DNA of 59,509 nt from an uncultured Planctomycetia bacterium (GCA_964603095.1 CAZRTR010000003.1:1-59509); one strand, 5' to 3'; counted from the first letter of the stretch, positions 7,066-59,492 are shown. The notes: generated by a model from the sequence alone, not told the origin. Program-made: numbers and translations.

Positions 7066-7347
7066 ATGAGCGTCGGACGTTCGAAGGTTCGGGTCGGGGA
7101 GCAGGCCGCCCAACGATATCAGGCCTTCAGGGATCTGTTGGATTTCTCTGAAGAGCTGGCCCTGGCCGGAATGAGGTCCCAGGGGCTTTCGGAAGACCAG
7201 GGTTGGCAGGTCTGGCGCCGACGCTGGGCGAAGGCATCTCTCGAACATCAGAAGACCAACCGGAAGGTTGCCAAACTCCTTGCGGCACGGGATAGGGTCC
7301 TCCAGCCCGCTCCACGAAGCGCTCGAGAAGATCGTCGAGCTGCTTGA
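7066..7347 (+). CDS. small protein, partner of nucleotidyltransferase (cassette 2)
   Basis: 93-aa ORF overlapping the NTase ORF. It occupies the same position as ORFs 304 and 40692. Confidence 0.4.
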   Translation: MSVGRSKVRVGEQAAQRYQAFRDLLDFSEELALAGMRSQGLSEDQGWQVWRRRWAKASLEHQKTNRKVAKLLAARDRVLQPAPRSAREDRRAA

Positions 7348-7843
7348 ACGCCGGCGTATCCCCTACATGGTGATGGGAGGGCTGTCTCTCTCCGTCTGGG
7401 GACGTGTCCGGGCGACCCAGGATGTTGATCTGGCGGTGGCGTTGGATCCGGGACAAGAGCCGGACTTCCTCCGGGCGATTCGGAAGCAACATTTTCTTCC
7501 TGCGCCTGCGCGGGCCATGCTGGGCCACCGGCTTCTGGTCTGTCGGTATCTGAAGCCGACTCGAGGATTGCCCTTACAGGTTGACCTCTTCCTTGCGCGG
7601 GGGGAGTATCAACAGCAGGCCCTGGCCCGGGCGGTATCCGTCCGGTTGGGCGCTCGATCTTTCCGGGTCATTGCGCCGGAGGATTTGATTCTGTACAAGC
7701 TCCTGGCCGATCGTCCCATTGACCATCTCGACATCCAGACGATCGTTCAGGAACAGAAAGGCCGGTTGGACAGGAGATATTTGATTCAATGGGCCAGGTC
7801 CCTCCGACTCTCCAGGCGACTGAGTTCCGTTCTAAAGGTCTGA
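7268..7843 (+). CDS. minimal nucleotidyltransferase-fold protein (paralog 2)
   Basis: Contains MVMGGLSLSVWGRVRATQDVDLAV and PEDLILYKLLADRPIDHLDIQTIV, and is clearly homologous to ORF 40901. The exact start is uncertain (ATG 7268 or TTG 7280). Confidence 0.75.
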   Translation: MPNSLRHGIGSSSPLHEALEKIVELLERRRIPYMVMGGLSLSVWGRVRATQDVDLAVALDPGQEPDFLRAIRKQHFLPAPARAMLGHRLLVCRYLKPTRGLPLQVDLFLARGEYQQQALARAVSVRLGARSFRVIAPEDLILYKLLADRPIDHLDIQTIVQEQKGRLDRRYLIQWARSLRLSRRLSSVLKV

Positions 7844-7847
7844 TCTG

Positions 7848-8801
7848 ATGGAAGCGGCGAGATCACCGTACATCAAGCATCTCTATGTCTGCGTGAACAG
7901 GCGGGATCCTGGGGTCACCTGCTGTTCGCATGGAGGTGGAGAGGCGATCAAGGAGAGGATAAAGGCCTTTGTCAAAGCCAACGGCTTGAAAGGCAAGGTG
8001 CGGGTCAGCTCCTCCGGCTGCATGGACCTGTGCGCCCAGGGGCCCAACGTGATGGTCACCCCGGACCACCTCTGGTACCACGGGGTCACCCTGGAGGATG
8101 TCGACCGGATCATTGAGGAGCAGCTGGCGCCGCTGGTGAATCAGGGACAGTCCCCTTCGGGGACAGTCCCGTCACCTCATTCCCACATCCGGGCTTTTCT
8201 CCTGGATCTGGGCAACGTTCTGATCCAGTTCGATCACATGCAGGCGGCTAGAACGATCACGGCCAACGCCAAGGCGACCCCGGAGGAGCTGTACCGGATG
8301 TTTTTCGAATCGCCGCTGATCGTCCAGCATGACGAGGGAAGGATCACCACCCGGGATTTCTACGAGGAGCTCAAGAGGATGATTGGGTTTACCCTCTCCT
8401 ACGGCGCCTTCCTCGCCGTTTGGAACGACATCTTCACGGAGAATCAGGAGATGACCGCTTTTGTACGACGGCTGCTGAGCCAATATCCCTGCTTTCTGAT
8501 CTCCAACACGAACCGGCCTCACTTTGAGTTCTGCCGGAAGCGGTTTTCGATCCTGAACGAGATGAACGGCTGGATCCTCTCCTACGAGGTGGGGGCCTTG
8601 AAGCCCAAGCCGATCATCTACCAGCGGGCGCTGGAGATGCTCAGGATTGCCCCTTCCCAGGTCTTCTACATCGATGACCGGACCGATCTGATCGAGGCGG
8701 GGCAGCGGATCGGATTCCAGACGCACCGGTTCACCGGGGTGGAGCCGCTCGTCGAGGAGCTGAAGCAAAGGGGAGTCGGCGGCCTTCCTCGGCTTGGCTA
8801 G
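7848..8801 (+). CDS. fusion protein: thioredoxin-like [2Fe-2S] ferredoxin domain + HAD-superfamily (YihX-like) phosphatase domain
   Basis: The N-terminal domain has Cys in VCVNRRDPGVTCC...GCMDLC. The C-terminal domain has the DLGNV motif I and a HAD-IA-like core. The linker is encoded by a palindromic repeat. Confidence 0.75.
   Translation: MEAARSPYIKHLYVCVNRRDPGVTCCSHGGGEAIKERIKAFVKANGLKGKVRVSSSGCMDLCAQGPNVMVTPDHLWYHGVTLEDVDRIIEEQLAPLVNQGQSPSGTVPSPHSHIRAFLLDLGNVLIQFDHMQAARTITANAKATPEELYRMFFESPLIVQHDEGRITTRDFYEELKRMIGFTLSYGAFLAVWNDIFTENQEMTAFVRRLLSQYPCFLISNTNRPHFEFCRKRFSILNEMNGWILSYEVGALKPKPIIYQRALEMLRIAPSQVFYIDDRTDLIEAGQRIGFQTHRFTGVEPLVEELKQRGVGGLPRLG
8144..8170. repeat. palindromic repeat family A (GGGACAGTCCC), 2 units, translated in frame
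   Basis: The sequence gggacagtcccc-ttc-ggggacagtccc encodes QGQSPSGTVPS in the inter-domain linker. Confidence 0.85.
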
Positions 8802-36005: not shown

Positions 36006-37079
36006 ATGGTGACCGAGCAGGCGGTCTGGGAGGCGTTAGCCAAGGTGGAGGATCCGGAACTCCACCGGGATGTCGTCTCTCTTGGCATGATCCAGAATCT
36101 GAAGGTGGAGGGGGATCAGGTTTCCTTGACTTTAGTCCTGACCACCCCCGCCTGCCCGGTTCGGGGGAAGTTTGAGCAGGATGTCCGGGCCGCTGTCGCT
36201 TCGATTCCGGGGATTTCCAAGGTGGAGCTGGCCACCTCCGCCATGGTCAGGTCGACCCGCCCCTTTGACCAGCAGGGGATGCCCGGCGTCCGGAACGTCA
36301 TCGCCGTCGCCAGCGGCAAAGGGGGAGTCGGCAAGACCACGGTGTCGGTCAACATCGCTGTGGCCCTGGCGAAAGAGGGGGCCAAGGTGGGACTGATGGA
36401 CGCCGACATCTACGGCCCGAACGTCCCCCTCATGATGGGGTTGACTGCCGTGCCGGCCCTGAAGGATCAGAGAATCGTCCCGGCGGAGAATTTCGGGGTC
36501 AAGGTGATGTCGATGGGGTTCCTGATCCGGCAGGAGGAGGCGGTGATCTGGCGGGGGCCGATGCTCCACGGGGCGATCAACAAGTTCTTGAAAGAGGTGG
36601 AGTGGGGGGATCTGGATTACCTCGTGGTGGATCTTCCGCCCGGGACCGGCGACGTGCAGTTGTCCCTCTCCCAATCGATCCCGCTGACCGGAGCCCTCAT
36701 CGTCACCACCCCGCAGGACGTGGCCCTGCAGGATGTCCGCCGCTCGATCGCCATGTTCGAGAAGGTGAAGGTTCCGATTCTGGGTGTCGTGGAGAACATG
36801 TCCGGGTTTGTTTGCCCCCACTGCGGCAAGCCGACCGACATCTTCTCCAAGGGGGGCGGGGCGGAGGCGGCGCGGCGGCTGAAGATTCCGTTTCTGGGGG
36901 AGGTCCCGCTCGTCCCGGAGGTCCGGATCGGCTCCGACACCGGGCACCCGATCGTCCTGACCCACCCCGATTCTCCGGCGGCGGCGGCGTTGATCCAAGC
37001 GGCGAAGAGGATGGCGGCGCAGGTCTCCATCCTGGCGGTCGATGAGGCGGAGCATCGCAAAACCGTATGGAAAGTGTAG
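36006..37079 (+). CDS. apbC: Mrp/NBP35 (ApbC) Fe-S cluster carrier ATPase
   Basis: N-terminal DUF59-like domain, the deviant Walker A SGKGGVGKTT, and CPHCG. Confidence 0.88.
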   Translation: MVTEQAVWEALAKVEDPELHRDVVSLGMIQNLKVEGDQVSLTLVLTTPACPVRGKFEQDVRAAVASIPGISKVELATSAMVRSTRPFDQQGMPGVRNVIAVASGKGGVGKTTVSVNIAVALAKEGAKVGLMDADIYGPNVPLMMGLTAVPALKDQRIVPAENFGVKVMSMGFLIRQEEAVIWRGPMLHGAINKFLKEVEWGDLDYLVVDLPPGTGDVQLSLSQSIPLTGALIVTTPQDVALQDVRRSIAMFEKVKVPILGVVENMSGFVCPHCGKPTDIFSKGGGAEAARRLKIPFLGEVPLVPEVRIGSDTGHPIVLTHPDSPAAAALIQAAKRMAAQVSILAVDEAEHRKTVWKV

Positions 37080-40691: not shown

Positions 40692-40904
40692 ATGGTGAAA
40701 TCAATTCGTCGTTACACCGAGGAGTCGGAGCGTCAACGTGTCCGCCACTTGCAGCAGCTCACCTGCCGAGAATCTGCAGCGATCTTGGAACTCCTCCTTC
40801 GCTCTCGTCTGGCGTTTGAACTCCATTTTGCGGAAGACGACCATCCCATAGCTCTGTCTCATTACCACCGTTTTCATCCGAACAGACGTCGAAAAGCGGC
40901 GTGA
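40692..40904 (+). CDS. small protein, partner of nucleotidyltransferase (cassette 3)
   Basis: 70 aa with a GTGA overlap onto the downstream NTase. Confidence 0.45.
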   Translation: MVKSIRRYTEESERQRVRHLQQLTCRESAAILELLLRSRLAFELHFAEDDHPIALSHYHRFHPNRRRKAA

Positions 40905-41473
40905 AGGCACCCACCCTTGAGGATGTCTACGGAACCTTTCTGGGCGTCCTCCATTCCTCTCGACAGCGCTACCTGGTGATCGGTGCATTGGCCGTGGGAA
41001 TGCTGGGCGAGGCTCGCCTCACGCACGACCTGGATTTCCTGCTGTTCCTGTCCTCGGAGGAGCTTCCCCGATTTCTTCGGCGGGTCAAGCAGCGAGGATT
41101 CCAGTTCGATTCCAAGACGATTCATCAGCACGCCAGCGAAACGGGAGCTTTTCGATTGTCCTATCACGGGGTTCCCGTTGACTGTTTGATGGCGACCACT
41201 TCTCTGGAAGAACAGATGTGGCATCGGTCCAAGAAGCTGCGCCTTCACCGGCGGCTGGCCCATTTCCCTTCTCCTGAAGATCTGATTCTGCTCAAGCTGC
41301 TGCCCGGGCGCCCCAAGGACCTCCTGGATGTGGAGAGCATCTTTACCCGCCGCGGAAAAGGTTTAGATGTGGGGTATCTGAAGAAAACGGCCCAACGGAT
41401 GGCCGATGAGCTTCAAGATGCCCGGATTTGGCACCGACTCCAGCCCCTCTTAAAGTCCGCGAGCTCCCGTTAG
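40901..41473 (+). CDS. minimal nucleotidyltransferase-fold protein (paralog 3)
   Basis: LVIGALAVGMLGEARLTHDLDFLL and PEDLILLKLLPGRPKDLLDVESIF. Confidence 0.78.
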   Translation: MKAPTLEDVYGTFLGVLHSSRQRYLVIGALAVGMLGEARLTHDLDFLLFLSSEELPRFLRRVKQRGFQFDSKTIHQHASETGAFRLSYHGVPVDCLMATTSLEEQMWHRSKKLRLHRRLAHFPSPEDLILLKLLPGRPKDLLDVESIFTRRGKGLDVGYLKKTAQRMADELQDARIWHRLQPLLKSASSR

Positions 41474-41526: not shown

Positions 41527-42312
41527 GTGCGCCGAGTTTACGTCGATGTCGGGGGATTGACCTGCCCGAAGAAAGGATCGAAGTCGGTGGTGGAGGCGCT
41601 GAACCGGGCGATCCGGCGGGCCGGGTTGGAGCAGGAGGTTCAGGTGATTCCCCGGGGCTGCTTCGGGCTGTGCAACCTGGCCCCGAACCTGTACATCGAG
41701 CCGGACGGGATCTGGTACTCCCGATTCACCGTCCGGGACGCCTCGATCATCGTCCGGAAGCATCTGGTGAAGGGAAAGCCGGTCACCCGGCTCATCCATT
41801 ATCCGGTTCGGCGGGAAATCAACGGAAAGAGAGGAGGTGTTCGGATGCCGGAGACACTCGTGGCACGGGAAGTGGAGGTGGGGGAGATCGCCCCCGATTT
41901 CGCCCTCAAGGATCAGGACGGCAAAGAGGTGGCCCTCTCCAGCTTTCGGGGGAAGAAGAATGTGGCGCTTTGCTTTTACCCCTTCGACTGGAGCCCGGTC
42001 TGCACGACGGAGAACTGCGCCTTGACGGAGGATCTGCCGAAGTTTGAAGGCAAGGACACGGTGATCCTCGGGGTCAGCTGCGACTCCCATTTCTCCCACA
42101 AGGCCTGGAGGGAGAGCATGGGGTTGAAGCAGACCTTGTTGAGCGATCTGAAGCGGGAGGTGTCGAAGAAGTACGGGCTTTTCTTCGAGGATCTGAACTG
42201 CTCGAAGAGGGCCACCGTGGTGATCGACCGGTCGGGGAAGGTGATCTTCAAGAAGGTTCAGGAGATCAAAGTGCCGAGGAACAATCAAGAGATTATCGCT
42301 GCGCTCAAGTGA
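41527..42312 (+). CDS. fusion protein: thioredoxin-like ferredoxin domain (3 Cys) + peroxiredoxin (Bcp/AhpC-TSA) domain
   Basis: The N-terminal domain aligns with ORF 7848 (LTC...GCFGLC, WY). The Prx part has [13 protein letters not shown]. Confidence 0.78.
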
Positions 42313-42371: not shown

Positions 42372-44816
42372 ATGTCAGGACAGTCGGTAGAGCAAGGGCT
42401 AACGGAGGATCAGATTTTGGAGCAGGAGGTCCGCCGGCATGTGCTGGTGACCCCGTGGGACCAGCTTCTTAAACTGGTCGACCCGATCTACAACTGGGGC
42501 CGGAGGAACTCCCTCTGGCCGCTCCAGTTCGGGCTGGCCTGCTGCGCGATCGAGATGATCTGCACCGCCGCCTCACGCTTCGACATCGCCCGGTTCGGGG
42601 CGGAGCTGTTCCGGGCCTCCCCCCGCCAGGCCGATCTGATGATCGTCTCCGGAACCGTGACGAAGAAGATGGTCCCGATGATCGTCCGGCTGTACGACCA
42701 GATGCCGGAGCCGAAGTATGTGATCTCGATGGGGGCCTGCGCCACCGCCGGCGGGCCGTTCAAGGAGGGGTACAACGTCGTCTCCGGGATCGACAAGTTC
42801 CTTCCGGTCGATGTCTACATCCCCGGCTGCCCCCCCACTCCCCAGGCGCTGCTTCACGCCCTGATCACGCTGCAGAAGAAGATCGACGGGCAGTCGATCG
42901 GCCAGGTTCGCTGGTACGCCAAGGAGGCGCCGCCGGAGATTCCGGTGCCGGAGCTGGGCCCGGATCTGGTGGATGTCCGACGGGCGGAGGAGATCAAGCA
43001 AAAGTGCGCCGGGCCAGGCGTCGAGCAGAAACCGGCGGCCCTTCCGACGATGATCCCGGCCCCGACGAAGACGGATGAGCGGACCCGGATCGTCGAGCCG
43101 AGCCGGCTTCTGGAGACGGCCCGGGAGATGAGGAACAACCCCGATTCGGCGTTGGATTACCTGGCCAATCTCACCTGCGTCGATTACCAGGACTGTTACG
43201 AACTGGTCTACCACCTTTACTCCATCAAACATTACCGTCCGCCGCTGGCTCTCAAGGTGCGGGCGAAGAAGGAGGACCCGAGGATTCCATCGGTCGTTTC
43301 CATCTGGCCCGGGGCCGATCTGCAGGAGCGGGAGGTCTGGGACCTGTACGGGGTCCGGTTCGAGGGTCACCCGAACCTGAAACGGATCCTGATGTGGGAA
43401 GGGTTCGAGGGCCACCCGATGCGGAAAGATTACCTGGAGCCGTATTACGAAGCGCCGGGGAAGATCTTCCCCAGCCGGTGGAAGGAGGGGCGCCATCAGC
43501 GGGCGGAAGAACGGGTTGCTTTTTCCGATAACGTTAGATACCCACCTGGATTTGATCCGACACAGGGACAGTCCCCTTTGGAAAAGGGACAGTCCCCTTT
43601 AGATCGCCTCCCAGAGGGCGCTACTTCGGGGACAGTCCCTGCGGGGACAATCCTTGGGGGGACTGTCCCTTATGAAGAATTGACTCCGGTCACCTCCCAG
43701 TCGCTCGAGTCCCTCAAGACCGACACCCTGGTGATCAACCTCGGCCCCCAGCACCCTTCCACCCCTGGGGTCTTCCGGATGAAGGTGGTGGTGGACGGCG
43801 AACGGATTGTGAAGCTGGAGCCGGTGATGGGCTACATGCACCGGAACCACGAGAAGATCGGGGAGCGGAACACCTATCTCATGAACTTCCCCTACACCGA
43901 CCGGCTGGATTACATCTGCTCGATGTCGAACAACCTGGGCTACGCCCTGACGGTCGAAAAGATGCTGGGGTTGAAGCCCCCGGAGCGGGCCGAGTATATC
44001 CGGGTGATCATGGCGGAGCTGACCCGGATCGTCAACCATTTCTGGGCGATCGGGTTTCTCCTGAACGATCTGGGGGCCTTCTTCACCCCGGCCCTGTACG
44101 CCATCGAGGAGCGGGAGCTGATCCTGGACCTGTTCGAGATGGCCTCCGGCTCCCGGATGATGTGCAACTACATGCGCTTCGGCGGAGTGGCGGCCGATCT
44201 GCCGGACGAATTCTTCCCGATCTTCACCTCCCTGATCCATGACCGGCTGCCGAAGGGGATCGAGCAGATCGACCGGTATCTGACCCGCAACGAAATTCTG
44301 CTCAGCCGCTGCCGGGGGGTGGGGGTGCTTCCCCGGGACGCGGCGGTCGCCTATTCCGCGGCCGGGCCGGTTCTGCGGGGTTCCGGCGTCCCGTACGACG
44401 TCCGGAAAGCGGAGCCCTACTCGATCTACGACCGGTTCGATTTCGAGATCCCCACCTTCCCGGAGGGGGATGTCTACGCCCGGTACCGGGTCCGGATCGC
44501 GGAGATGTGGCAGTCTTTGAAGATCCTCCGCCAGGCCTTCCGGGACCTTCCGAAGGGGGAGATCCTGGCCGGCAAGAAGCTCTGGAACATCCGGGTGCTG
44601 GCCGGGGAGGCGTACGGGCGGGTGGAGAATCCGAAGGGGGAGCTGGGTTTCTATATCGTGAGCGATGGGACCGACCACCCGTACCGGTACCATGTGCGGG
44701 CCCCTTCCTTTATCAACCTAACCGCATTGGGGCTGATGTGCCAGGGGCATCTGGTGGCCGACGTGGTGGCGATCCTGGGCTCGATCGACATCGTTCTCGG
44801 CGAGACGGATCGATAA
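42372..44816 (+). CDS. nuoBCD: fused NADH-quinone oxidoreductase subunits B, C and D
   Basis: NuoB: [22 protein letters not shown]. NuoC: [18 protein letters not shown]. NuoD: [16 protein letters not shown] 42372 with a ggaga RBS is preferred over track start 42309, which would translate the repeats. Confidence 0.88.
43565..43669. repeat. palindromic repeat family A, five units, translated in the NuoC-NuoD linker
   Basis: Units at 43565, 43586, 43628, 43643 and 43656 encode [36 protein letters not shown]. Confidence 0.88.
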
Positions 44817-44855
44817 TGGGGTCTGGCTCTTTTTTACTGGGGATCAGGAGGGTTG

Positions 44856-44882
44856 GTGAAAAAGTGCCTGGCCCCTTTTCAC
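44856..44882. repeat. degenerate palindromic repeat (gtgaaaa-core-ttttcac), intergenic nuoD-nuoI
   Basis: 7-bp inverted arms flank agtgcctggcccc. A further degenerate unit, ggggtctggctc, lies at 44818. Confidence 0.55.
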
Positions 44883-44883
44883 A

Positions 44884-45513
44884 ATGAAGATTTATGGCTT
44901 AGAGCTTTTACGGGGCCTCGGAATAACGCTGAAGCACTTCATCTTCAGCTACACGGCCGGGATCCGGCGGGGTTTCCGCAATCGGCTGCGGGGGCATGTT
45001 CGCCAACACCCGGGGGAGAAGGGGATCTTCACCGTCCAGTACCCGGAGGAACGGCTGAAGGTTCCGGAGCGGTTCCGGGTGCTGCCGGTCCTGATCTTTG
45101 ACGGCAAGCAGGGGGAGAGTTGGGCGACCGAGACGGAACGGTGCACCGCCTGCGGAATCTGCGCCAAGGTCTGCCCTCCGCAGTGCATCTGGATCGTGCA
45201 GGGAAAGGATCCGACGGGGAAGCCGATCGCCAAGGCCTCCGAGTTTACCATCGATGTGGATGTCTGCATGAACTGCGGCTTCTGCGCCGAGTACTGCCCC
45301 TTCGACGCGATCAAGATGGATCACAAGTTCGAATGGGGCTCCGGTGAGCGGCAGAATTCCCACATCTTCGACATCGACAAGCTTCATGTCTCGACCGAAT
45401 ATTACGCCAAGACCCACCCGAAGGCCTGGGCCGAAGAAGAAGCCCATCGCAAGGCGGAGCAAGCGAAGAAGGCGGCCGCCGCGGCCGCCAAACCGGCGGG
45501 AGGGCAGGGGTGA
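44884..45513 (+). CDS. nuoI: NADH-quinone oxidoreductase subunit I (2x[4Fe-4S])
   Basis: CTACGICAKVCP and CMNCGFCAEYCP, plus an Ala/Lys-rich C-terminal tail. Confidence 0.88.
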   Translation: MKIYGLELLRGLGITLKHFIFSYTAGIRRGFRNRLRGHVRQHPGEKGIFTVQYPEERLKVPERFRVLPVLIFDGKQGESWATETERCTACGICAKVCPPQCIWIVQGKDPTGKPIAKASEFTIDVDVCMNCGFCAEYCPFDAIKMDHKFEWGSGERQNSHIFDIDKLHVSTEYYAKTHPKAWAEEEAHRKAEQAKKAAAAAAKPAGGQG

Positions 45514-45872
45514 GCTACAATCTGAATTACCTGTTCCTGGGGTTGTTCTTCATCGGGGCGATGGTGGTGCCGCTTCTGCCGATCGTTCTGGCCCGATTCG
45601 TCGCTCCCAAGAGGCCGGGGCCGAACAAACTGGATTCTTATGAGTGCGGGATGGAGACCGAGGGGGACACCTGGGTCCAGTTCCGGATCCAGTATTACCT
45701 GTTCGCGATCCTGTTCGTGATCTTCGATGTGGAGGCCCTCTTCCTCTTCCCCTGGGCGGTGATCTTCCGGGAGGCCGGGATCTCCGGGTTGATCGCCATG
45801 GGGGTTTTCCTGGGGGTGCTGGCGTTGGGGCTGGTCTACGCCTGGCAGGAGGGGGCGTTGGAATGGGACTGA
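45510..45872 (+). CDS. nuoA: NADH-quinone oxidoreductase subunit A
   Basis: 120 aa, 3 TM, with YECGME and FDVEALFLFPW. GTG start overlaps the nuoI stop. Confidence 0.88.
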   Translation: MSYNLNYLFLGLFFIGAMVVPLLPIVLARFVAPKRPGPNKLDSYECGMETEGDTWVQFRIQYYLFAILFVIFDVEALFLFPWAVIFREAGISGLIAMGVFLGVLALGLVYAWQEGALEWD

Positions 45873-46990
45873 CGCTGCCGGCTTGGCTCCTCACGCTGAT
45901 TCAACTGATTGTGCCGATGGCGGTGATCCTGGCGGCGGCGCCGGTCGGGATGATGTACCTGACTTGGGCAGAGCGGAAGGTGATCGCCCGGATGCAGGAC
46001 CGGTTCGGCCCGAACCGGGTCGGACCCTATGGATTGCTCCAGCCGGTCGCCGATATGATCAAGATGTTGACGAAGGAGGATATCGTTCCCTCCGGAGCCG
46101 ATCGGTTGTGCCATTTCCTGGCCCCGGTGCTGATCGTGGTGCCGGCCCTGTTCCTCTTCACGGTGCTTCCGTTCGGGGAGGAGTTGGTCGCAGCGCCGCT
46201 GACGACGGGGCTGCTTTTCTTTGTGGCGATCGGATCGGCCGAGACGCTGACGATCTTCATGGCCGGCTGGGGATCCCGGAACAAGTTCTCCTTGCTTGGT
46301 GCCGTCCGGACCGCTGCGCAGCTGGTGGCCTACGAGGTGCCGTTTGTTCTGGCCCTGGTGGTGGTGCCGATGGTGACGGGGTCTCTCAACCTGGTGGAGA
46401 TTGTCCGGCAACAGCAGGGGCATTGGTTCTTCTTCACCCCGTGGGGGTTCGTCGCCTTCTTCCTGGTTCTGACGGCCGGCCTGGCGGAGGTGAACCGGAC
46501 CCCGTTCGACCTGCCGGAGGCGGAGTCGGAGATCGTGGCCGGGTTCCACACCGAGTACAGCGGGATGAAGTTCGCCCTCTTCTACATGGCGGAGTTCTTG
46601 AGCGCCTTGGCGCTGGGGGCCCTGTTGAGCGTCCTGTTCCTCGGAGGGTGGGACGGTCCGGCCCCGGTCGCCGGTTGGATCTGGATGGTTTTCAAGACCT
46701 TGGGGATGGTTTTCGTGATGATCTGGATCCGGGGGACCTTCCCCCGCTTCCGGATCGATCAGCTGATGCGGATGGCCTGGGTGGTGATGATCCCGATGAC
46801 CCTGGCGAACCTGGTGGGAGCGGCGATCTGGTGTCTGGCAGAGGGAATGGGTCGGATTTTCTGGTCGGCCTCGGCGCCGGCGGTCACCTTCCTGGTGACG
46901 ACCCAACTGTGGCTCCGCCCGAAGCCGCATCTGACGGCGAAATGGGTCGAACCGGTTCTAGAGGGCTTGACGGAACCGCCGCGGGAATGA
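45863..46990 (+). CDS. nuoH: NADH-quinone oxidoreductase subunit H
   Basis: Internal ATG of track ORF 45644. Contains AERKVIARMQDRFGPNRVGPYGLLQP and PFDLPEAESEIVAGFHTEYSG. Confidence 0.9.
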   Translation: MGLTLPAWLLTLIQLIVPMAVILAAAPVGMMYLTWAERKVIARMQDRFGPNRVGPYGLLQPVADMIKMLTKEDIVPSGADRLCHFLAPVLIVVPALFLFTVLPFGEELVAAPLTTGLLFFVAIGSAETLTIFMAGWGSRNKFSLLGAVRTAAQLVAYEVPFVLALVVVPMVTGSLNLVEIVRQQQGHWFFFTPWGFVAFFLVLTAGLAEVNRTPFDLPEAESEIVAGFHTEYSGMKFALFYMAEFLSALALGALLSVLFLGGWDGPAPVAGWIWMVFKTLGMVFVMIWIRGTFPRFRIDQLMRMAWVVMIPMTLANLVGAAIWCLAEGMGRIFWSASAPAVTFLVTTQLWLRPKPHLTAKWVEPVLEGLTEPPRE

Positions 46991-47017: not shown

Positions 47018-47335
47018 ATGGAGACAACTGGAAAGTTTGTTAGGGTAGCGGCCACGTCCGAGATTCCGCCGGGGGAAGGGCGGTGCTTCGAGACGGAGGG
47101 GCGGGAAATCGCCGTTTTCAATCTGGGCGGCAGTTTCTATTGTATCGACAACACCTGCACCCACGCCGGCGGCCCTCTGGGAGAGGGAACGGTGCAGGGG
47201 GAGCAGGTGGAGTGTCCGTGGCATGGCGCCAACTTTAACGTGAAAACGGGTCAGGTCTTGAGCGCCCCGGCCGCCGAGGGGGTGGCCTGCCACAAGGTTC
47301 GAGTCAACGGCTCGGACATCGAGGTCGAGTTTTAG
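47018..47335 (+). CDS. small Rieske-type [2Fe-2S] protein (NirD/ferredoxin-like)
   Basis: CTHAGGPL...CPWHGANF. Confidence 0.85.
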   Translation: METTGKFVRVAATSEIPPGEGRCFETEGREIAVFNLGGSFYCIDNTCTHAGGPLGEGTVQGEQVECPWHGANFNVKTGQVLSAPAAEGVACHKVRVNGSDIEVEF

Positions 47336-47408: not shown

Positions 47409-47720
47409 ATGTCTTACGTGATTACCGGCAAGTGCTTAGGGGAACAGTACGCTTCCTGTGTGGAGGTTTGTCCCGTGGATTGCATCTATCCCGGGGATCA
47501 CCAGGGGGAAAAATTCATGGTGATTGACCCGGAGATCTGCATCACCTGCGGGGCCTGCCTGCCCGTCTGTCCGATCGGGGCGATCGTCGAGTCGGAGGAT
47601 TACGATCCGGAGTTCGCCAAGGTGAACGCGGAGTTGTCCCCGAAGTTCAAGGTGAACCCCAAGGTGACCCCGCGGCCTTCGAACGATCCTCCTCGAAAGC
47701 CGACCAACAAACTCGTCTAG
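47409..47720 (+). CDS. ferredoxin, 7Fe (3Fe-4S + 4Fe-4S) FdxA-like
   Basis: CLGEQYASCVEVCPVDCI and CITCGACLPVCP. Confidence 0.85.
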   Translation: MSYVITGKCLGEQYASCVEVCPVDCIYPGDHQGEKFMVIDPEICITCGACLPVCPIGAIVESEDYDPEFAKVNAELSPKFKVNPKVTPRPSNDPPRKPTNKLV

Positions 47721-47729
47721 CCGCTTCAT

Positions 47730-49304
47730 TTGCCCAACTCCCAGGAGCAGATTAAGGAGAGGATCGGCAATCCTTTCCTGGTCCGCGAACGAATCGAGGC
47801 CGCGGCGAAGGAGGGGTTCACCACCTTAACCGAAGACGACAAGTTTCTGGCCAAGTGGTACGGGCTGTACACGCACCGCAAGGAGCCCGGCTTTTTTATG
47901 CTCCGGCTCAAGATCCCCAACGGCTTCCTGACCTCGGCTCAATTAAAGACGATCGCCCGGATCGCGACGGAGCAGAATAAAGATTTCGGGGACATCACCA
48001 CCCGCCAGGATATCCAGCTCCACTGGATCAAGACGGAGGAGGCCCCGGCGATTCTGGAAGAACTCAAAGGGGTCGGGATCTCCACGCTGGGGGCCTGCGG
48101 GGACATCATGCGCAACCTGGTCGGCTGCCCGGTGGCCGGGGTGGACGCTCAGGAGTATTTCGACGCTTCCCCGGTCTTGATGGAGGCGAACCGCTTCTTC
48201 CTGGGCAACACGGAGTTCGCCAACCTTCCGCGGAAATACAAGATCTCCATCGCGGGCTGCCGGGACCAGTGCCAGCAGCCGGAGATCCAGTGCGTCAGCT
48301 TTGTCGGGATGGAGCGGCGAAGAAACGGGACGGCGGAACTCGGCTTCGATCTGCGCGCCGGCGGGGGGCTCTCCACCAAATGGTACTACGGACAGCGGCT
48401 GAACGCCTTCGTCAGACCGGAGCAGGTCCTCCCGGTCTTGAAGGTAATCACCGAGATCTACCGGGACGCGCCGGACTACCGGAAGAGTCGGGCCCGGGCT
48501 CGGCTGAAGTATCTGGTGGCCGACTGGGGGGTGGAGAAGTTCCGGGCGGCGATCCAGGCGAGGATGGAGTTCCCCCTGGAGGAGACCGGCCCTTATGAGG
48601 AGCCGCTCGACACCTACAAGGATCATGTGGGGGTGCATGAGCAGAAGCAGCCGGGGCTGTTCTACGTCGGAGTCCCGGTGCCGGTGGGGCGGATCACCGG
48701 GGGGCAGATGAGGAAGGTGGCGGAGCTGGCGGAGCGGCACGGGAATGGGACGGTCCGGCTCACCGTCCGTCAGAATCTCCTAATCCTGAATATCCCGAGG
48801 GACCGAGTGGCGGCCGTTCTGGAGGGGTTGGAGTCGGTGGAGCTCAAAGTCAACGCCTCCCCGATTCTTCGGGGGGTGCTGGCCTGCACCGGGATCGAGT
48901 TCTGCCGCCTAGCCGTCACCGAGACCAAGGCCCGGGCGATGGAGATTGTTCGGTACCTGGAGTCCCGCGTTGCTCTGGAGGAGCCGCTTCGGATCCATGT
49001 GACCGGGTGTCCCAACACCTGCGCCCAATCCCCGATCGCCCATATCGGGCTGCAGGGCTCCCAAACCAAGGTGGGGGATCAGACGGTGGAGTCGTACGAT
49101 GTCGCGGTGGGAGGGCAGCTGGGCCGCGACCGGGCGTTCAACCATTTCGTTCTTCGGAAGATCCCCGCCACGGAGGTCAAGGTTCGGCTGGAGCGGCTGC
49201 TGCTGGGATACAAGAGGAACCGCAATCCGGGAGAGCTGTTCAACGACTTCTGCAAGCGGGTGGGGGATCAGACGGTGGTGAAACTCCTTTCCGCGGAAGA
49301 GTGA
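47730..49304 (+). CDS. ferredoxin-dependent nitrite/sulfite reductase (NirA/Sir family, siroheme-[4Fe-4S])
   Basis: Duplicated NiR/SiR ferredoxin-like and 4Fe-4S domains, with CTGIEFCRLA...GCPNTCAQ. TTG start. Confidence 0.85.
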   Translation: MPNSQEQIKERIGNPFLVRERIEAAAKEGFTTLTEDDKFLAKWYGLYTHRKEPGFFMLRLKIPNGFLTSAQLKTIARIATEQNKDFGDITTRQDIQLHWIKTEEAPAILEELKGVGISTLGACGDIMRNLVGCPVAGVDAQEYFDASPVLMEANRFFLGNTEFANLPRKYKISIAGCRDQCQQPEIQCVSFVGMERRRNGTAELGFDLRAGGGLSTKWYYGQRLNAFVRPEQVLPVLKVITEIYRDAPDYRKSRARARLKYLVADWGVEKFRAAIQARMEFPLEETGPYEEPLDTYKDHVGVHEQKQPGLFYVGVPVPVGRITGGQMRKVAELAERHGNGTVRLTVRQNLLILNIPRDRVAAVLEGLESVELKVNASPILRGVLACTGIEFCRLAVTETKARAMEIVRYLESRVALEEPLRIHVTGCPNTCAQSPIAHIGLQGSQTKVGDQTVESYDVAVGGQLGRDRAFNHFVLRKIPATEVKVRLERLLLGYKRNRNPGELFNDFCKRVGDQTVVKLLSAEE

Positions 49305-50398
49305 GAGTCCTCCTCGTCGGGGCGGGAATCATCGGCCTGAGCATCGCGGAGGAGCTGACCCGCCGGGGCGTGGAGGTGGAGCTGTTCGAGAAAGGGGCCA
49401 GGCCGGGGTGTGAGGCCTCCTCCGCCGCGGCGGGGATCCTCTCCCCACAAGGTGAGGCCGACGGGCCCGGTCCATTCCTTAACCTGCTGCTGGCCGGCTA
49501 CCCACTGATCCCGGAGGCGGTGGCCCGCCTGAGCGCTTTGACCCAGGTCGACTTAAGATACCGGGCCAGCGGAATGATCTTGGTCGCTCTGACCGAGCGG
49601 GATGAGGAGGAGCTGGACCGGCAGATCGCCTGGCAGCAGAGGGCCGGCCTGCGGTTGGAGCGGTTGACCGCCGGACAGATCAAGGAGATGGAGCCGGCCA
49701 TCGACGGCCCGGTCCGATCCGGCGTCTGGTGGCCCCAGACGGCCCAGATCGACAATACCCGGCTGGTGGAGGCGATCGCGGAGGTGGTTCAGGCCCAGGG
49801 AGGGACAATCCATACCGACGCTCCGGTCAGCCGCTTCCTTCTCGAGGGAAACCGGGTGACCGGAGTGGAGACGGCCCATGGAGAGGTCCGGGCCGATTGG
49901 GTGGTCAACAGCTCCGGTTCCTGGGCCGGGTTTGATGAGAGCTTGTCGCTGACGATCCCCGCCGTTCCGGTCAAAGGGCAGATCCTCCAGTATCGGACCG
50001 ACGGTCCCGTGGTTGAGCGGATCATCAAGTCCCCCCGGGCCTATCTCGTCCAACGCTCCGACCGGGAGTTGATCGTCGGAACCACCGTCGAGCATGCCGG
50101 GTACGATAAGCGGGTAACCGATGAAGGTCGCCGCCAGATCCAGGCCGGAGCGCGGGAGATCAGTTCCCGGTTAGACACGTTGACCCTGGAAAGTTCCTGG
50201 GCCGGCTTAAGGCCGGGGACCCCGGATCGGCTTCCGATTCTGGGACCCACTCCTCTGGATCGGCTCCTGGTGGCCGCCGGCCATTATCGCAACGGGATCC
50301 TCCTGGCTCCCTTGACCGGACGGCTGATCGCCGATTGGATCACCCGGGGCGACTGTTCCGTCGACTTGTCCCCCTTCGGGTTGGCCCGGTTTTTATGA
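49301..50398 (+). CDS. FAD-dependent oxidoreductase (glycine oxidase ThiO/DAO family)
   Basis: GTGA overlap with the upstream stop. Contains VLLVGAGIIGLSIAEEL and C-terminal GHYRNGILLAP. Confidence 0.78.
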   Translation: MRVLLVGAGIIGLSIAEELTRRGVEVELFEKGARPGCEASSAAAGILSPQGEADGPGPFLNLLLAGYPLIPEAVARLSALTQVDLRYRASGMILVALTERDEEELDRQIAWQQRAGLRLERLTAGQIKEMEPAIDGPVRSGVWWPQTAQIDNTRLVEAIAEVVQAQGGTIHTDAPVSRFLLEGNRVTGVETAHGEVRADWVVNSSGSWAGFDESLSLTIPAVPVKGQILQYRTDGPVVERIIKSPRAYLVQRSDRELIVGTTVEHAGYDKRVTDEGRRQIQAGAREISSRLDTLTLESSWAGLRPGTPDRLPILGPTPLDRLLVAAGHYRNGILLAPLTGRLIADWITRGDCSVDLSPFGLARFL

Positions 50399-50424: not shown

Positions 50425-54098
<3,674 letters not shown>

Positions 54099-55223: not shown

Positions 55224-56175
55224 AGAGACGCGCACCCGCGCGCCAAATCAAGAAGGTCTGGAAGAGCATACCCACGATCGAAGGGGCCGGGGTCCGGCTG
55301 CGGCGTGTCTTCGGCTTCCATCAGGTGCCGCAGCTGGATCCGTTCCTGCTGCTGGACTGCTTTGATTCCGACAACCGGGATGACTACGTCAGGGGCTTCC
55401 CCTGGCACCCGCACCGGGGGATTGAGACGATCACCTACGTCTTGGACGGCGATGTAGAGCACCAGGACAGTCTGGGCAACAAAGGCGTCATCCGGCCGGG
55501 CGACGCGCAGTGGATGACGGCGGGCATCGGCATCATCCACCAGGAGATGCCGCAGGGATCTCCCACCGGTCGGATGTGGGGATTCCAGCTCTGGGCGAAC
55601 CTGCCCCGGAAGCAGAAGATGATGGATCCCAGGTACCGGGAGGTGACCGCCCAGCAGATCCCGGCGGTCAAGACCCCCGAGGGAGCGACGGTGCGGATCA
55701 TCTGCGGGGCGGTAGGCGGCGTGCAAGGGCCGGTCCGGGAGATCGTGACCGATCCGGAGTACCTGGATGTCTCACTGCCGGCGGGGAAAACCTTTACGCA
55801 TTCGGTCAAGCCGGGCTACAGGTTTTCGCCTACGTCGTTGAGGGGGAGGGCTACTTTGATCCGGGGCGCAATCCGTTCGACCGGCAAGTTATCGGGGAGA
55901 GCTATTTCGACATGAAGCCGTCGTGCGTCTGCAAGGAGGGGGAGATCGCCCTTTATGAGTCGGACGGAGACACCGTGCTGGTCGCGGCCGACAAGAAGCC
56001 CGTTCGCTTCCTGCTGGTATCCGGCAAGCCGCTCAAAGAGCCGGTCGCCTGGTACTGCCCGATCGTCATGAACAGCCAGGAGGAGCTGGAAACCGCCTTC
56101 CGGGAGTACCGAGCCGGAACCTTCGTCAAAGAGGTCGGCGCGCCGAGAGAAAAAACAAAGGAAAGGAGGAGCTAG
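55220..56175 (+). pseudogene. pirin-family protein interrupted by a frameshift near 55820
   Basis: The N-half (HPHRGIETITYV...) is in the frame of track ORF 54719. The C-half (VFAYVVEGEGYF...) is in the frame of ORF 55510. Total length is 956 nt, not a multiple of 3. Confidence 0.75.
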
Positions 56176-58813: not shown

Positions 58814-59152
58814 ATGACGCCACTGTGGGCTATAACGCCGGAGAAGATCGAGGAAGCTGTTCAGAAGATCATCGCTTTCGAACAGCCGAAGAGGATCATT
58901 CTGTTCGGTTCCGTTGCTCGGGGAGATACGAACATTCACAGCGATGTGGATTTCCTTGTTGTGACAAAGGATGAGGTCGAAAGTCCGCGCAAAGAAAGTG
59001 TTCGGATCCGCCAAGCGCTGGACAGCGTTTCGATGCCAATGGATATCCTGGTGATCTCGGAAAAGCGGCTGAAAGAGTTGGGAGAGCAGCCGGGTTTGGT
59101 CTATCGAGAGGCATTACGTGCCGGAAAAGTAGTTTATGAATCCGCCGCTTAG
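58814..59152 (+). CDS. MNT-type nucleotidyltransferase (type VII antitoxin-like)
   Basis: ILFGSVARGDTNIHSDVDFLV. Confidence 0.85.
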   Translation: MTPLWAITPEKIEEAVQKIIAFEQPKRIILFGSVARGDTNIHSDVDFLVVTKDEVESPRKESVRIRQALDSVSMPMDILVISEKRLKELGEQPGLVYREALRAGKVVYESAA

Positions 59153-59492
59153 ACGCGACCCTCCCGGTTCTCCCAAGGATTGGCTGGTTCACGCCGAGAG
59201 CGATCTTAAATTGGCACGTGTCGCCGGAGAGCGGAACGATATTCTTCCTGAGCAAGCGTGCTTCCATGCTCAACAATCAGCTGAGAAAGCTCTCAAGGCC
59301 GTCCTTCTCTTTAAGCGCATAGAGTTCCCTCTCGTTCACGACATTAAAACGCTTGTTGGCCTCCTGCAAGGGAATGCCATCCCTTTCCCTCCGGAGATCC
59401 GCGAGGCCGGCTCGCTTACTCCTTACGCCGTGGAAGCCCGTTATCCGGGGCATCTTGAACCTGAAAACGCCGCGAAGCGGCCCATTTTTTGA
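59136..59492 (+). CDS. HEPN-domain protein (toxin-like partner of MNT)
   Basis: Overlaps the MNT gene by 17 nt. Contains the HEPN-like helices AEKALKAVLL...HDIKTL. Confidence 0.8.
   Translation: MNPPLRRDPPGSPKDWLVHAESDLKLARVAGERNDILPEQACFHAQQSAEKALKAVLLFKRIEFPLVHDIKTLVGLLQGNAIPFPPEIREAGSLTPYAVEARYPGHLEPENAAKRPIF

Follow-up and report, generated by a model that had tools for sequence, protein, structure and literature searches.

Contig CAZRTR010000003.1 from the assembly of an uncultured Planctomycetia bacterium (GCA_964603095.1) carries a short cluster of respiratory complex I genes, in which a fused nuoBCD gene is followed by nuoI, nuoA and nuoH. The window, by which we mean the whole stretch of 59,509 nt that was analyzed, is apparently an entire contig, and the neighborhood described here comprises 42 kb upstream and 12.5 kb downstream of the cluster. 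The four genes are intact and co-oriented, and their ends overlap or nearly abut. An earlier note on this DNA had described exactly this set of subunits (B, C, D, I, A and H, with the first three in one open reading frame, ORF), and the Pfam and NCBIfam domain assignments bear it out.

Subunits and functional residues of the cluster

The nuoBCD gene (42417..44816, + strand) encodes a single chain that consists of NuoB (cluster N2), NuoC and NuoD (quinone site). The three Pfam domains lie in one frame (Oxidored_q6/NuoB 1.6e-28, Complex1_30kDa/NuoC 8.4e-40 and Complex1_49kDa/NuoD 1.3e-90). Three starts are possible, GTG 42309, ATG 42372 and TTG 42417, resulting in an ORF span of 799-835 codons. 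The TTG lies 8 nt past a GGAGG and is also the start of the database copy of the window's BCD protein (P0001, 799 aa). The earlier note had placed the cluster at 42372 to 46990; this end is exact, and the start represents one of the three options. nuoI (44884-45513, +) starts 67 nt after nuoBCD, encodes Fer4 domains for two [4Fe-4S] clusters and matches the NCBIfam NuoI model TIGR01971 at 3.7e-26 (91 bits, under the 113-bit cut-off). It shares a 4-nt overlap with nuoA (45510-45872, +; Pfam Oxidored_q4 4.1e-38), which encodes a three-helix membrane subunit, and nuoA in turn shares a 10-nt overlap with nuoH (45863-46990, +; Pfam NADHdh 1e-115). NuoH, a membrane subunit, builds the quinone tunnel and the beginning of the E-channel, and NuoI is the electron entry point in enzymes lacking NuoEFG.

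The NADH-oxidizing module and the antiporter-like subunits had been reported as absent from the locus. This holds for the entire window, since a phmmer search of all six-frame ORFs of at least 45 aa, seeded with NuoE, F, G, J, K, L, M and N from related loci, found no such ORF in the 59,509 bp.

The triple fusion, pointed out in the earlier note, is common. All three domains are present in 119 of the 120 best database matches to the fused protein (52-100% identity), and NCBIfam holds a model of the same three-domain fusion (NF009808, PRK13292, "subunit B/C/D"). This is the best NCBIfam match of nuoBCD, and its score of 662 bits against a cut-off of 1156 bits places the window protein outside the source lineage of the model. 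The NuoC-NuoD linker (window 43560-43680) is of low complexity with a short direct peptide repeat, and Logan contigs display 3-nt length variants within it at 43580-43582.

All four N2-ligand cysteines are readable in the translation of the NuoB part (CC...GAC...GCPP; YIPGCPP), and the NuoI translation contains both four-cysteine [4Fe-4S] motifs, CTACGICAKVCP and CMNCGFCAEYCP. NuoA possesses the YECG loop and the FDVE motif. Residues 6-347 of NuoH align with Nqo8 of Thermus thermophilus (2.3e-73), and the PFDLPEAExE loop is kept. For the NuoD part the best match among solved structures is T. thermophilus Nqo4 (1.7e-99, 336 bits), and the quinone-site tyrosine (Tyr87, T. thermophilus numbering) is retained within DRLDY. 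Second-best solved-structure matches are the cyanobacterial NdhH for NuoD (321 bits) and NdhA for NuoH (245 bits). A hydrogenase-like nature of the protein (group 4 [NiFe] enzymes such as Ech, Mbh or FHL) was rejected because the NuoD part ends in ...VLGETDR and lacks the NiFe CxxC motifs. Large subunits of Mbh and FHL are also the weakest PDB matches in the list, with 197 and 132 bits versus 336 bits for Nqo4.

Relatives of the cluster and the membrane arm

The nuo genes of about 90 related loci were annotated; a scan with the BCD protein yielded at least 80 loci, which belong to other phyla and do not sample the window's lineage. This lineage is represented by four independent related loci of about 63% GC content (L003, L004/5 and L090), which derive from groundwater and subsurface metagenomes and are labelled Candidatus Omnitrophota by NCBI. 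Their proteins are 69-81% (NuoBCD) and 63-73% (NuoH) identical to those of the window. They have in common the gene order Mrp/NUBPL - (TusA, ABC-2) - thioredoxin-like-ferredoxin-like gene - AhpC peroxiredoxin - BCD - I - A - H - ferredoxin. An orthologue of a 103-aa 7Fe-type ferredoxin directly follows nuoH in all four, and all of them encode Mrp/NUBPL upstream of BCD.

We constructed neighbor-joining trees of NuoD (81 sequences) and NuoH (48 sequences). In both, the fused-BCD group, the Anaerolineae group and a group from Verrucomicrobia, Acidobacteriaceae and Chloroflexia fall together, and the canonical operons with nuoEFG occupy the other half. The window's clade in the NuoD tree is located among the fused-BCD types, beside B-CD-I loci of Anaerolineae and next to 2M operons of Verrucomicrobia and Acidobacteria. 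Identity to the window's NuoD is 57-81% for the fused-BCD types, 51-63% for Anaerolineae and 53-61% for Verrucomicrobia, Acidobacteriaceae and some Chloroflexia, compared with 35-41% for the canonical operons among the matches listed. The canonical operons carry E-F-G between D and H. The Verrucomicrobia, Acidobacteriaceae and Chloroflexia operons are arranged as A-B-C-D-I-H-J-K-L-M1-(M2)-N without E, F or G and encode a NuoL of 687-720 aa. Among the matches listed, none of about 75 superclade loci has E, F or G between D and H. Complete superclade operons lack nuoEFG and have nuoI ahead of nuoH, and related ones encode a NuoL of 687-748 aa and two M genes.

Judged from these trees and gene orders, the locus belongs to an EFG-less complex I superclade that includes the 2M complex I of Chloroflexi, Verrucomicrobia and Acidobacteria. 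A NuoD/NuoH phylogeny had been proposed in the earlier note as a check, and it places the window outside the EFG-containing half. As the quinone module (Q-module) and NuoH both fall within the EFG-less superclade, they do not constitute part of a standard 14-subunit enzyme. The cluster is genuine and conserved, and it represents neither a piece of the standard complex nor a novel type of system. Its novelty lies in the gene arrangement, namely the fusion of B, C and D, the placement of A and H with the Q-module and the dedicated ferredoxin; the EFG-less/2M branch to which it belongs is known and biochemically uncharacterized.

The fused-BCD types differ in what accompanies the Q-module. A 43%-GC lineage (L001, L094) has the order BCD-I-x-A-H and Blackallbacteria (L007) the order BCD-I-A-H. 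In Ardenticatenia-like Chloroflexi (L008, L088 and L089, and the unfused L020), BCD-I is located directly upstream of a canonical nuoA-N operon. In Isosphaeraceae-type Planctomycetes (L006, L021, L096-L100), fused BCD-I-A-H runs directly into J-K-N, with the full order BCD-I-x87-A-H-J-K-N-x138. This uncharacterized cluster shares with the window the fused BCD, the BCD-I-A-H order, 57-59% identity and the NuoD subclade. Unlike the window, it extends into J, K, a single NuoN-like gene and a conserved HEPN-like gene, carries an extra small gene between I and A and has no ferredoxin gene. The J-K-N continuation indicates that the module works with distal membrane subunits in a close relative.

The HEPN-like protein (x171/x138, 130-170 aa; L001 13350-13865, L094 10001-10393, L006 18521-18937) occurs in the nuo clusters of two distant lineages. 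Its gene sits between nuoI and nuoA/H in one of them and behind nuoN in the second, and the protein might be an accessory subunit. The window has no homologue, and a metagenome scan with x171/x138 for orphan J-K-N operons returned only loci of the Planctomycete type and of the low-GC L001 type.

In Chloroflexi, a split of the EFG-less complex I operon is documented (PMC7117926, citing Chadwick 2018). We found both Chloroflexi halves as separate operons, B-CD-I-Mrp and A-H-J-K-L-M1-M2-N. The former was seen in about 30 Anaerolineae loci among the matches listed, which encode B, a fused CD, I and Mrp and lack further nuo genes (A, H or J-N) within 10 kb. The latter was seen in L091 (GCA_975250935.1) and L092, in which A-H-J-K-L(724-746 aa)-M1-M2-N is followed by ATP synthase genes and B, C, D and I are lacking. 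The simplest reading of this comparison would be that the operon is cut after nuoH in the window's lineage and after nuoI in Anaerolineae.

We therefore consider it moderately probable that the locus is a split-operon piece of an EFG-less, ferredoxin-fed complex I whose membrane-arm genes reside elsewhere in the genome, and we infer the split from the relatives. The earlier note had offered a split operon and a ferredoxin-linked derivative as two explanations. The evidence suggests both together, to which the EFG-less clade and the conserved ferredoxin are added, with the split half drawn from related loci.

Among known systems, the 2M complex I of Chloroflexi (Anaerolinea-like) is closest. 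As described by Chadwick et al. 2018 and cited in PMC7117926, it too lacks nuoEFG, has its Q-module genes apart from the membrane-arm operon and has a Mrp/NUBPL gene beside them. It also has a fusion inside the Q-module (CD there, BCD here), and with 51-63% NuoD identity it forms the nearest branch. The window differs in that NuoB is fused as well, nuoA and nuoH accompany the Q-module and not J-N, and a ferredoxin gene follows nuoH. The 11-subunit enzymes (nuoABCDHIJKLMN; Desulfitobacterium, Chlorobi) likewise have no N-module and keep the cofactor sites of the Q-module (PMC3144371, PMC11238625). They are encoded by a single operon, in which H precedes I and B, C and D are individual genes, whereas the window's locus has the order BCD-I-A-H and does not include J-N. 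Cyanobacterial and chloroplast NDH-1 (PDB 6HUM) resembles the proposed enzyme as a ferredoxin-dependent, EFG-less complex I encoded in scattered gene clusters, but belongs to a different clade and groups its genes differently (ndhC-K-J, ndhA-I-G-E). Docking subunits of the NdhS/NdhV/NdhO type were not annotated in the loci read, and no search was aimed at them. The window's gene set matches the Q-module/ND1/ND3 assembly intermediate, and the locus demonstrates that such a set can be passed on as a unit, with NuoB, NuoC and NuoD joined in a single chain.

Candidate electron donor and rival explanations

The electron donor of complex I enzymes without an NADH module is an open question (PMC3144371, PMC11238625), and ferredoxin or PFOR has been proposed for the 11-subunit enzymes (PMC11238625). 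Behind nuoH the window encodes a 7Fe-type, FdxA-like ferredoxin (47409-47720, +; NCBIfam FdxA 5.4e-24, below cut-off) with the cysteine pattern C-x7-C-x3-CP ... C-x2-C-x2-C-x3-CP. This protein is a candidate donor, and probably the donor, because all four 63%-GC relatives keep its gene immediately behind nuoH. The other downstream genes are present as the earlier note had described them. They encode a soluble Rieske-type [2Fe-2S] protein (47018-47335, +; Pfam Rieske 4.2e-21), a NirA-family siroheme reductase (47730-49304), a flavoprotein (about 49304-50398) and the alpha and beta subunits of a KorA/KorB-like 2-oxoacid:ferredoxin oxidoreductase (50425-53227, +; TIGR03710 659 bits and TIGR02177 387 bits, both over cut-off). 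To call the cluster embedded in a block of ferredoxin-dependent enzymes was an overstatement, and we rejected the block as one ferredoxin-enzyme module. NCBIfam names the flavoprotein glycine oxidase ThiO, which belongs to thiamine synthesis, and L090 carries a Thi4 gene in its place. Rieske, full NirA-family gene and KorAB are common only to the window and its closest relative L003. The constant downstream partner of the cluster is the ferredoxin only.

More weakly, recurrent KorAB neighbors back the ferredoxin link. Among the matches listed, KorAB was found near EFG-less complex I in three lineages, namely in 11 of about 75 superclade loci versus none of about 14 canonical ones. These are the window and L003, four Acidobacteriaceae loci with KorAB beside nuoA, and five Anaerolineae loci with KorAB 2.5-4 kb downstream. 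We take the KorAB linkage as a suggestive hint only, which does not amount to significance. In the Acidobacteriaceae loci (L059, L060, L062 and L064), the KorAB-type enzyme is encoded 0.2-1.5 kb from nuoA of an EFG-less, 2M-type operon.

In the proposed mechanism, the locus would encode the electron-transfer half of a complex I without the NADH-oxidizing module, that is NuoB-C-D and NuoI plus the quinone tunnel of NuoA and NuoH. NuoJ, K, N and probably L and M would be encoded in a separate operon elsewhere, as in the neighboring Chloroflexi branch. The 7Fe-type ferredoxin, reduced by enzymes such as the KorAB-type 2-oxoacid:ferredoxin oxidoreductase encoded 3 kb downstream, may dock at NuoI, where electrons would enter. 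They would then pass from the NuoI clusters via N2 to quinone at the NuoD/NuoH site, and quinone reduction would drive proton pumping via the distal arm encoded elsewhere. A Mrp/NUBPL-type Fe-S cluster carrier ATPase encoded upstream (36006..37079, +; Pfam ParA/NUBPL 4.6e-105, FeS_assembly_P) probably inserts the Fe-S clusters into NuoB and NuoI. Its gene directly follows nuoI in about 20 of about 30 sampled Anaerolineae-type loci among the matches listed. The conserved ferredoxin behind nuoH, the Fe-S carrier upstream and the 2-oxoacid:ferredoxin oxidoreductase close by provide a concrete, testable donor-enzyme pair.

Several observations weigh against a split, ferredoxin-fed complex I. The trees were computed without support values, and the ferredoxin link consists in gene adjacency. 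KorAB adjacency is found in only two of the five window-lineage loci (window and L003), and in Anaerolineae KorAB lies within a syntenic block of unrelated genes, separated from nuoI. The lineage's nuoJ, K, L, M and N were found neither in the 59.5-kb contig nor by NuoN searches. The cluster ends at nuoH in three lineages (window type, 43%-GC L001 type and Blackallbacteria L007), a pattern that a stand-alone enzyme would equally produce. Finally, a check of N2 ligands and quinone site, also proposed earlier, found the N2 cysteines and the tyrosine intact, but the essential quinone-site histidine (His38, T. thermophilus numbering) reads proline in the window (HPSTPGV versus HPSTHGV in Nqo4; codon CCT 43764-43766). 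The histidine is present in all 80 other NuoD-containing ORFs that were examined in the related loci, among them that of L003 (80% identical), and Logan contigs of runs X1 and X3, from closely related strains, have A at 43765 (CAT, His) and none has C. As the relatives all have histidine, the Logan contigs read CAT and a pirin gene on the same contig is frameshifted, the likeliest reading of the proline would be an assembly error or a rare variant. We do not treat the predicted enzyme as inactive on its account.

Among the alternatives, a stand-alone reduced enzyme fares best, although we regard it as unlikely. BCD-I-A-H and the ferredoxin would form a membrane-anchored ferredoxin:quinone oxidoreductase without antiporter-like subunit that pumps few or no protons. 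Consistent with this, unrelated genes follow nuoH in all three lineages in which the cluster stops there (window type, L001/L094 type and Blackallbacteria L007), and searches for the lineage's NuoN found none. Moreover, six Planctomycete-type loci carry one antiporter-like gene, so the fused-BCD clade tends to reduced membrane arms. The NuoN searches are uninformative, however. With Isosphaeraceae and Chloroflexia (L048) queries, the best 120 matches were filled by the query's own phylum and contained only Planctomycetes and Chloroflexi, which says nothing on absence. In addition, NuoA (FDVE) and NuoH (PEAExE) keep the proton E-channel motifs, and the operon is demonstrably split in the neighboring branch. 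An antiporter-like subunit is found in every known member of the complex I / group-4 hydrogenase superfamily, and to our knowledge no member lacks one. Should the distal membrane genes truly be absent, the locus would provide the first example of a complex I relative that has no antiporter-like subunit.

The six Planctomycete-type loci (L006, L096, L098, L099 and L100; L021 ends after K) have their single antiporter-like gene in the order J-K-N-x138, and a seed search of the 4.6-10 kb downstream flank of L006, L096, L098 and L099 found no further nuo-like ORF. The enzyme encoded by the Planctomycete BCD-I-x87-A-H-J-K-N-x138 clusters may be a complex I with one pump module only, unless its L and M genes are located elsewhere. 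It appears improbable that the fused-NuoBCD clade as a whole represents a family of reduced complex I enzymes not described before. Its Planctomycete members would then work with one antiporter-like subunit and two small accessory proteins, and the window's lineage, still more reduced, would have BCD-I-A-H and a dedicated 7Fe ferredoxin as a minimal membrane-bound ferredoxin:quinone oxidoreductase without any such subunit.

We consider it very unlikely that BCD-I-A-H serves as a second Q-module and heel on the J-N arm of a canonical complex I, such that either NADH or ferredoxin drives one pump. The idea draws on the Chloroflexi loci L008, L020, L088 and L089, in which the clade's BCD-I lies right upstream of a canonical nuoA-B-C-D-E-F-G-H on the same strand. 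Against it stands a report that complex I clades seldom mix their subunits (PMC4453560). In addition, the window's lineage encodes A and H itself, other superclade members possess J-N of their own, and no canonical operon was seen for the window's lineage.

The earlier note had linked the locus to autotrophs. In that reading the enzyme would run in reverse, with the proton-motive force driving the reduction of ferredoxin from quinol for CO2 fixation, as suggested for the 2M enzymes of Nitrospira (PMC6606698, PMC9040806) and Nitrospina. The superclade includes 2M-type operons with four antiporter-like genes, and KorAB could act as a synthase. Yet the Nitrospira 2M NuoD shares just 38% identity with that of the window and groups in the other half of the tree, and NCBIfam files the window's two-subunit KorAB type with archaeal 2-oxoacid:ferredoxin oxidoreductases. 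Nothing on the contig marks an autotroph. No marker gene of the reductive tricarboxylic acid cycle is present. A pyruvate dehydrogenase complex, glycerol kinase and glycerol-3-phosphate dehydrogenase, all typical of organotrophs, are encoded on it. An autotrophic role is thus highly improbable.

That the cluster is a decaying remnant of an inactivated complex I, as the proline at the quinone site and the frameshifted pirin gene might suggest, appears extremely improbable, since all four genes are full length with orthologues at the identities given above in four related loci, all other cofactor ligands are intact, and every relative and the Logan contigs have the histidine.

Flanking genes and other features of the contig

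Immediately upstream of the cluster, a gene (41527..42312, +; AhpC-TSA 3.1e-38) encodes a small thioredoxin-like, [2Fe-2S]-ferredoxin-like domain fused to a peroxiredoxin of the AhpC/TSA type, and the stop codon of this gene overlaps the earliest of the possible BCD starts. The N-terminal domain of about 100 aa shows a sub-threshold match to PF01257 (NuoE fold), as do three orthologues (E 0.0003-0.012). The ferredoxin-like and peroxiredoxin parts share one frame in the window and are separate genes in L004 and L090. A second copy of the thioredoxin-like-ferredoxin-like domain, fused to a HAD hydrolase, is encoded at 7848-8801.

In a scan of the window, terminator counts equalled the shuffled expectation and promoter-like sites exceeded it only slightly, with 6 versus 2.6 +/- 1.7 expected, so that operon limits are not definable from them. 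The pirin gene (window about 55235-56133) is split over two frames, with residues 6-216 of the L090 orthologue in frame 1 and residues 197-305 in frame 3. The frameshift near 55.81-55.87 kb reflects either an indel error or a pseudogene. Genes for toxin-antitoxin-type nucleotidyltransferases (DUF6036/DUF2204/NTP_transf_2) and HEPN proteins are located at 458-922, 7268-7843, 40901-41473 and 58814-59492, with one pair at the 3' end of the contig.

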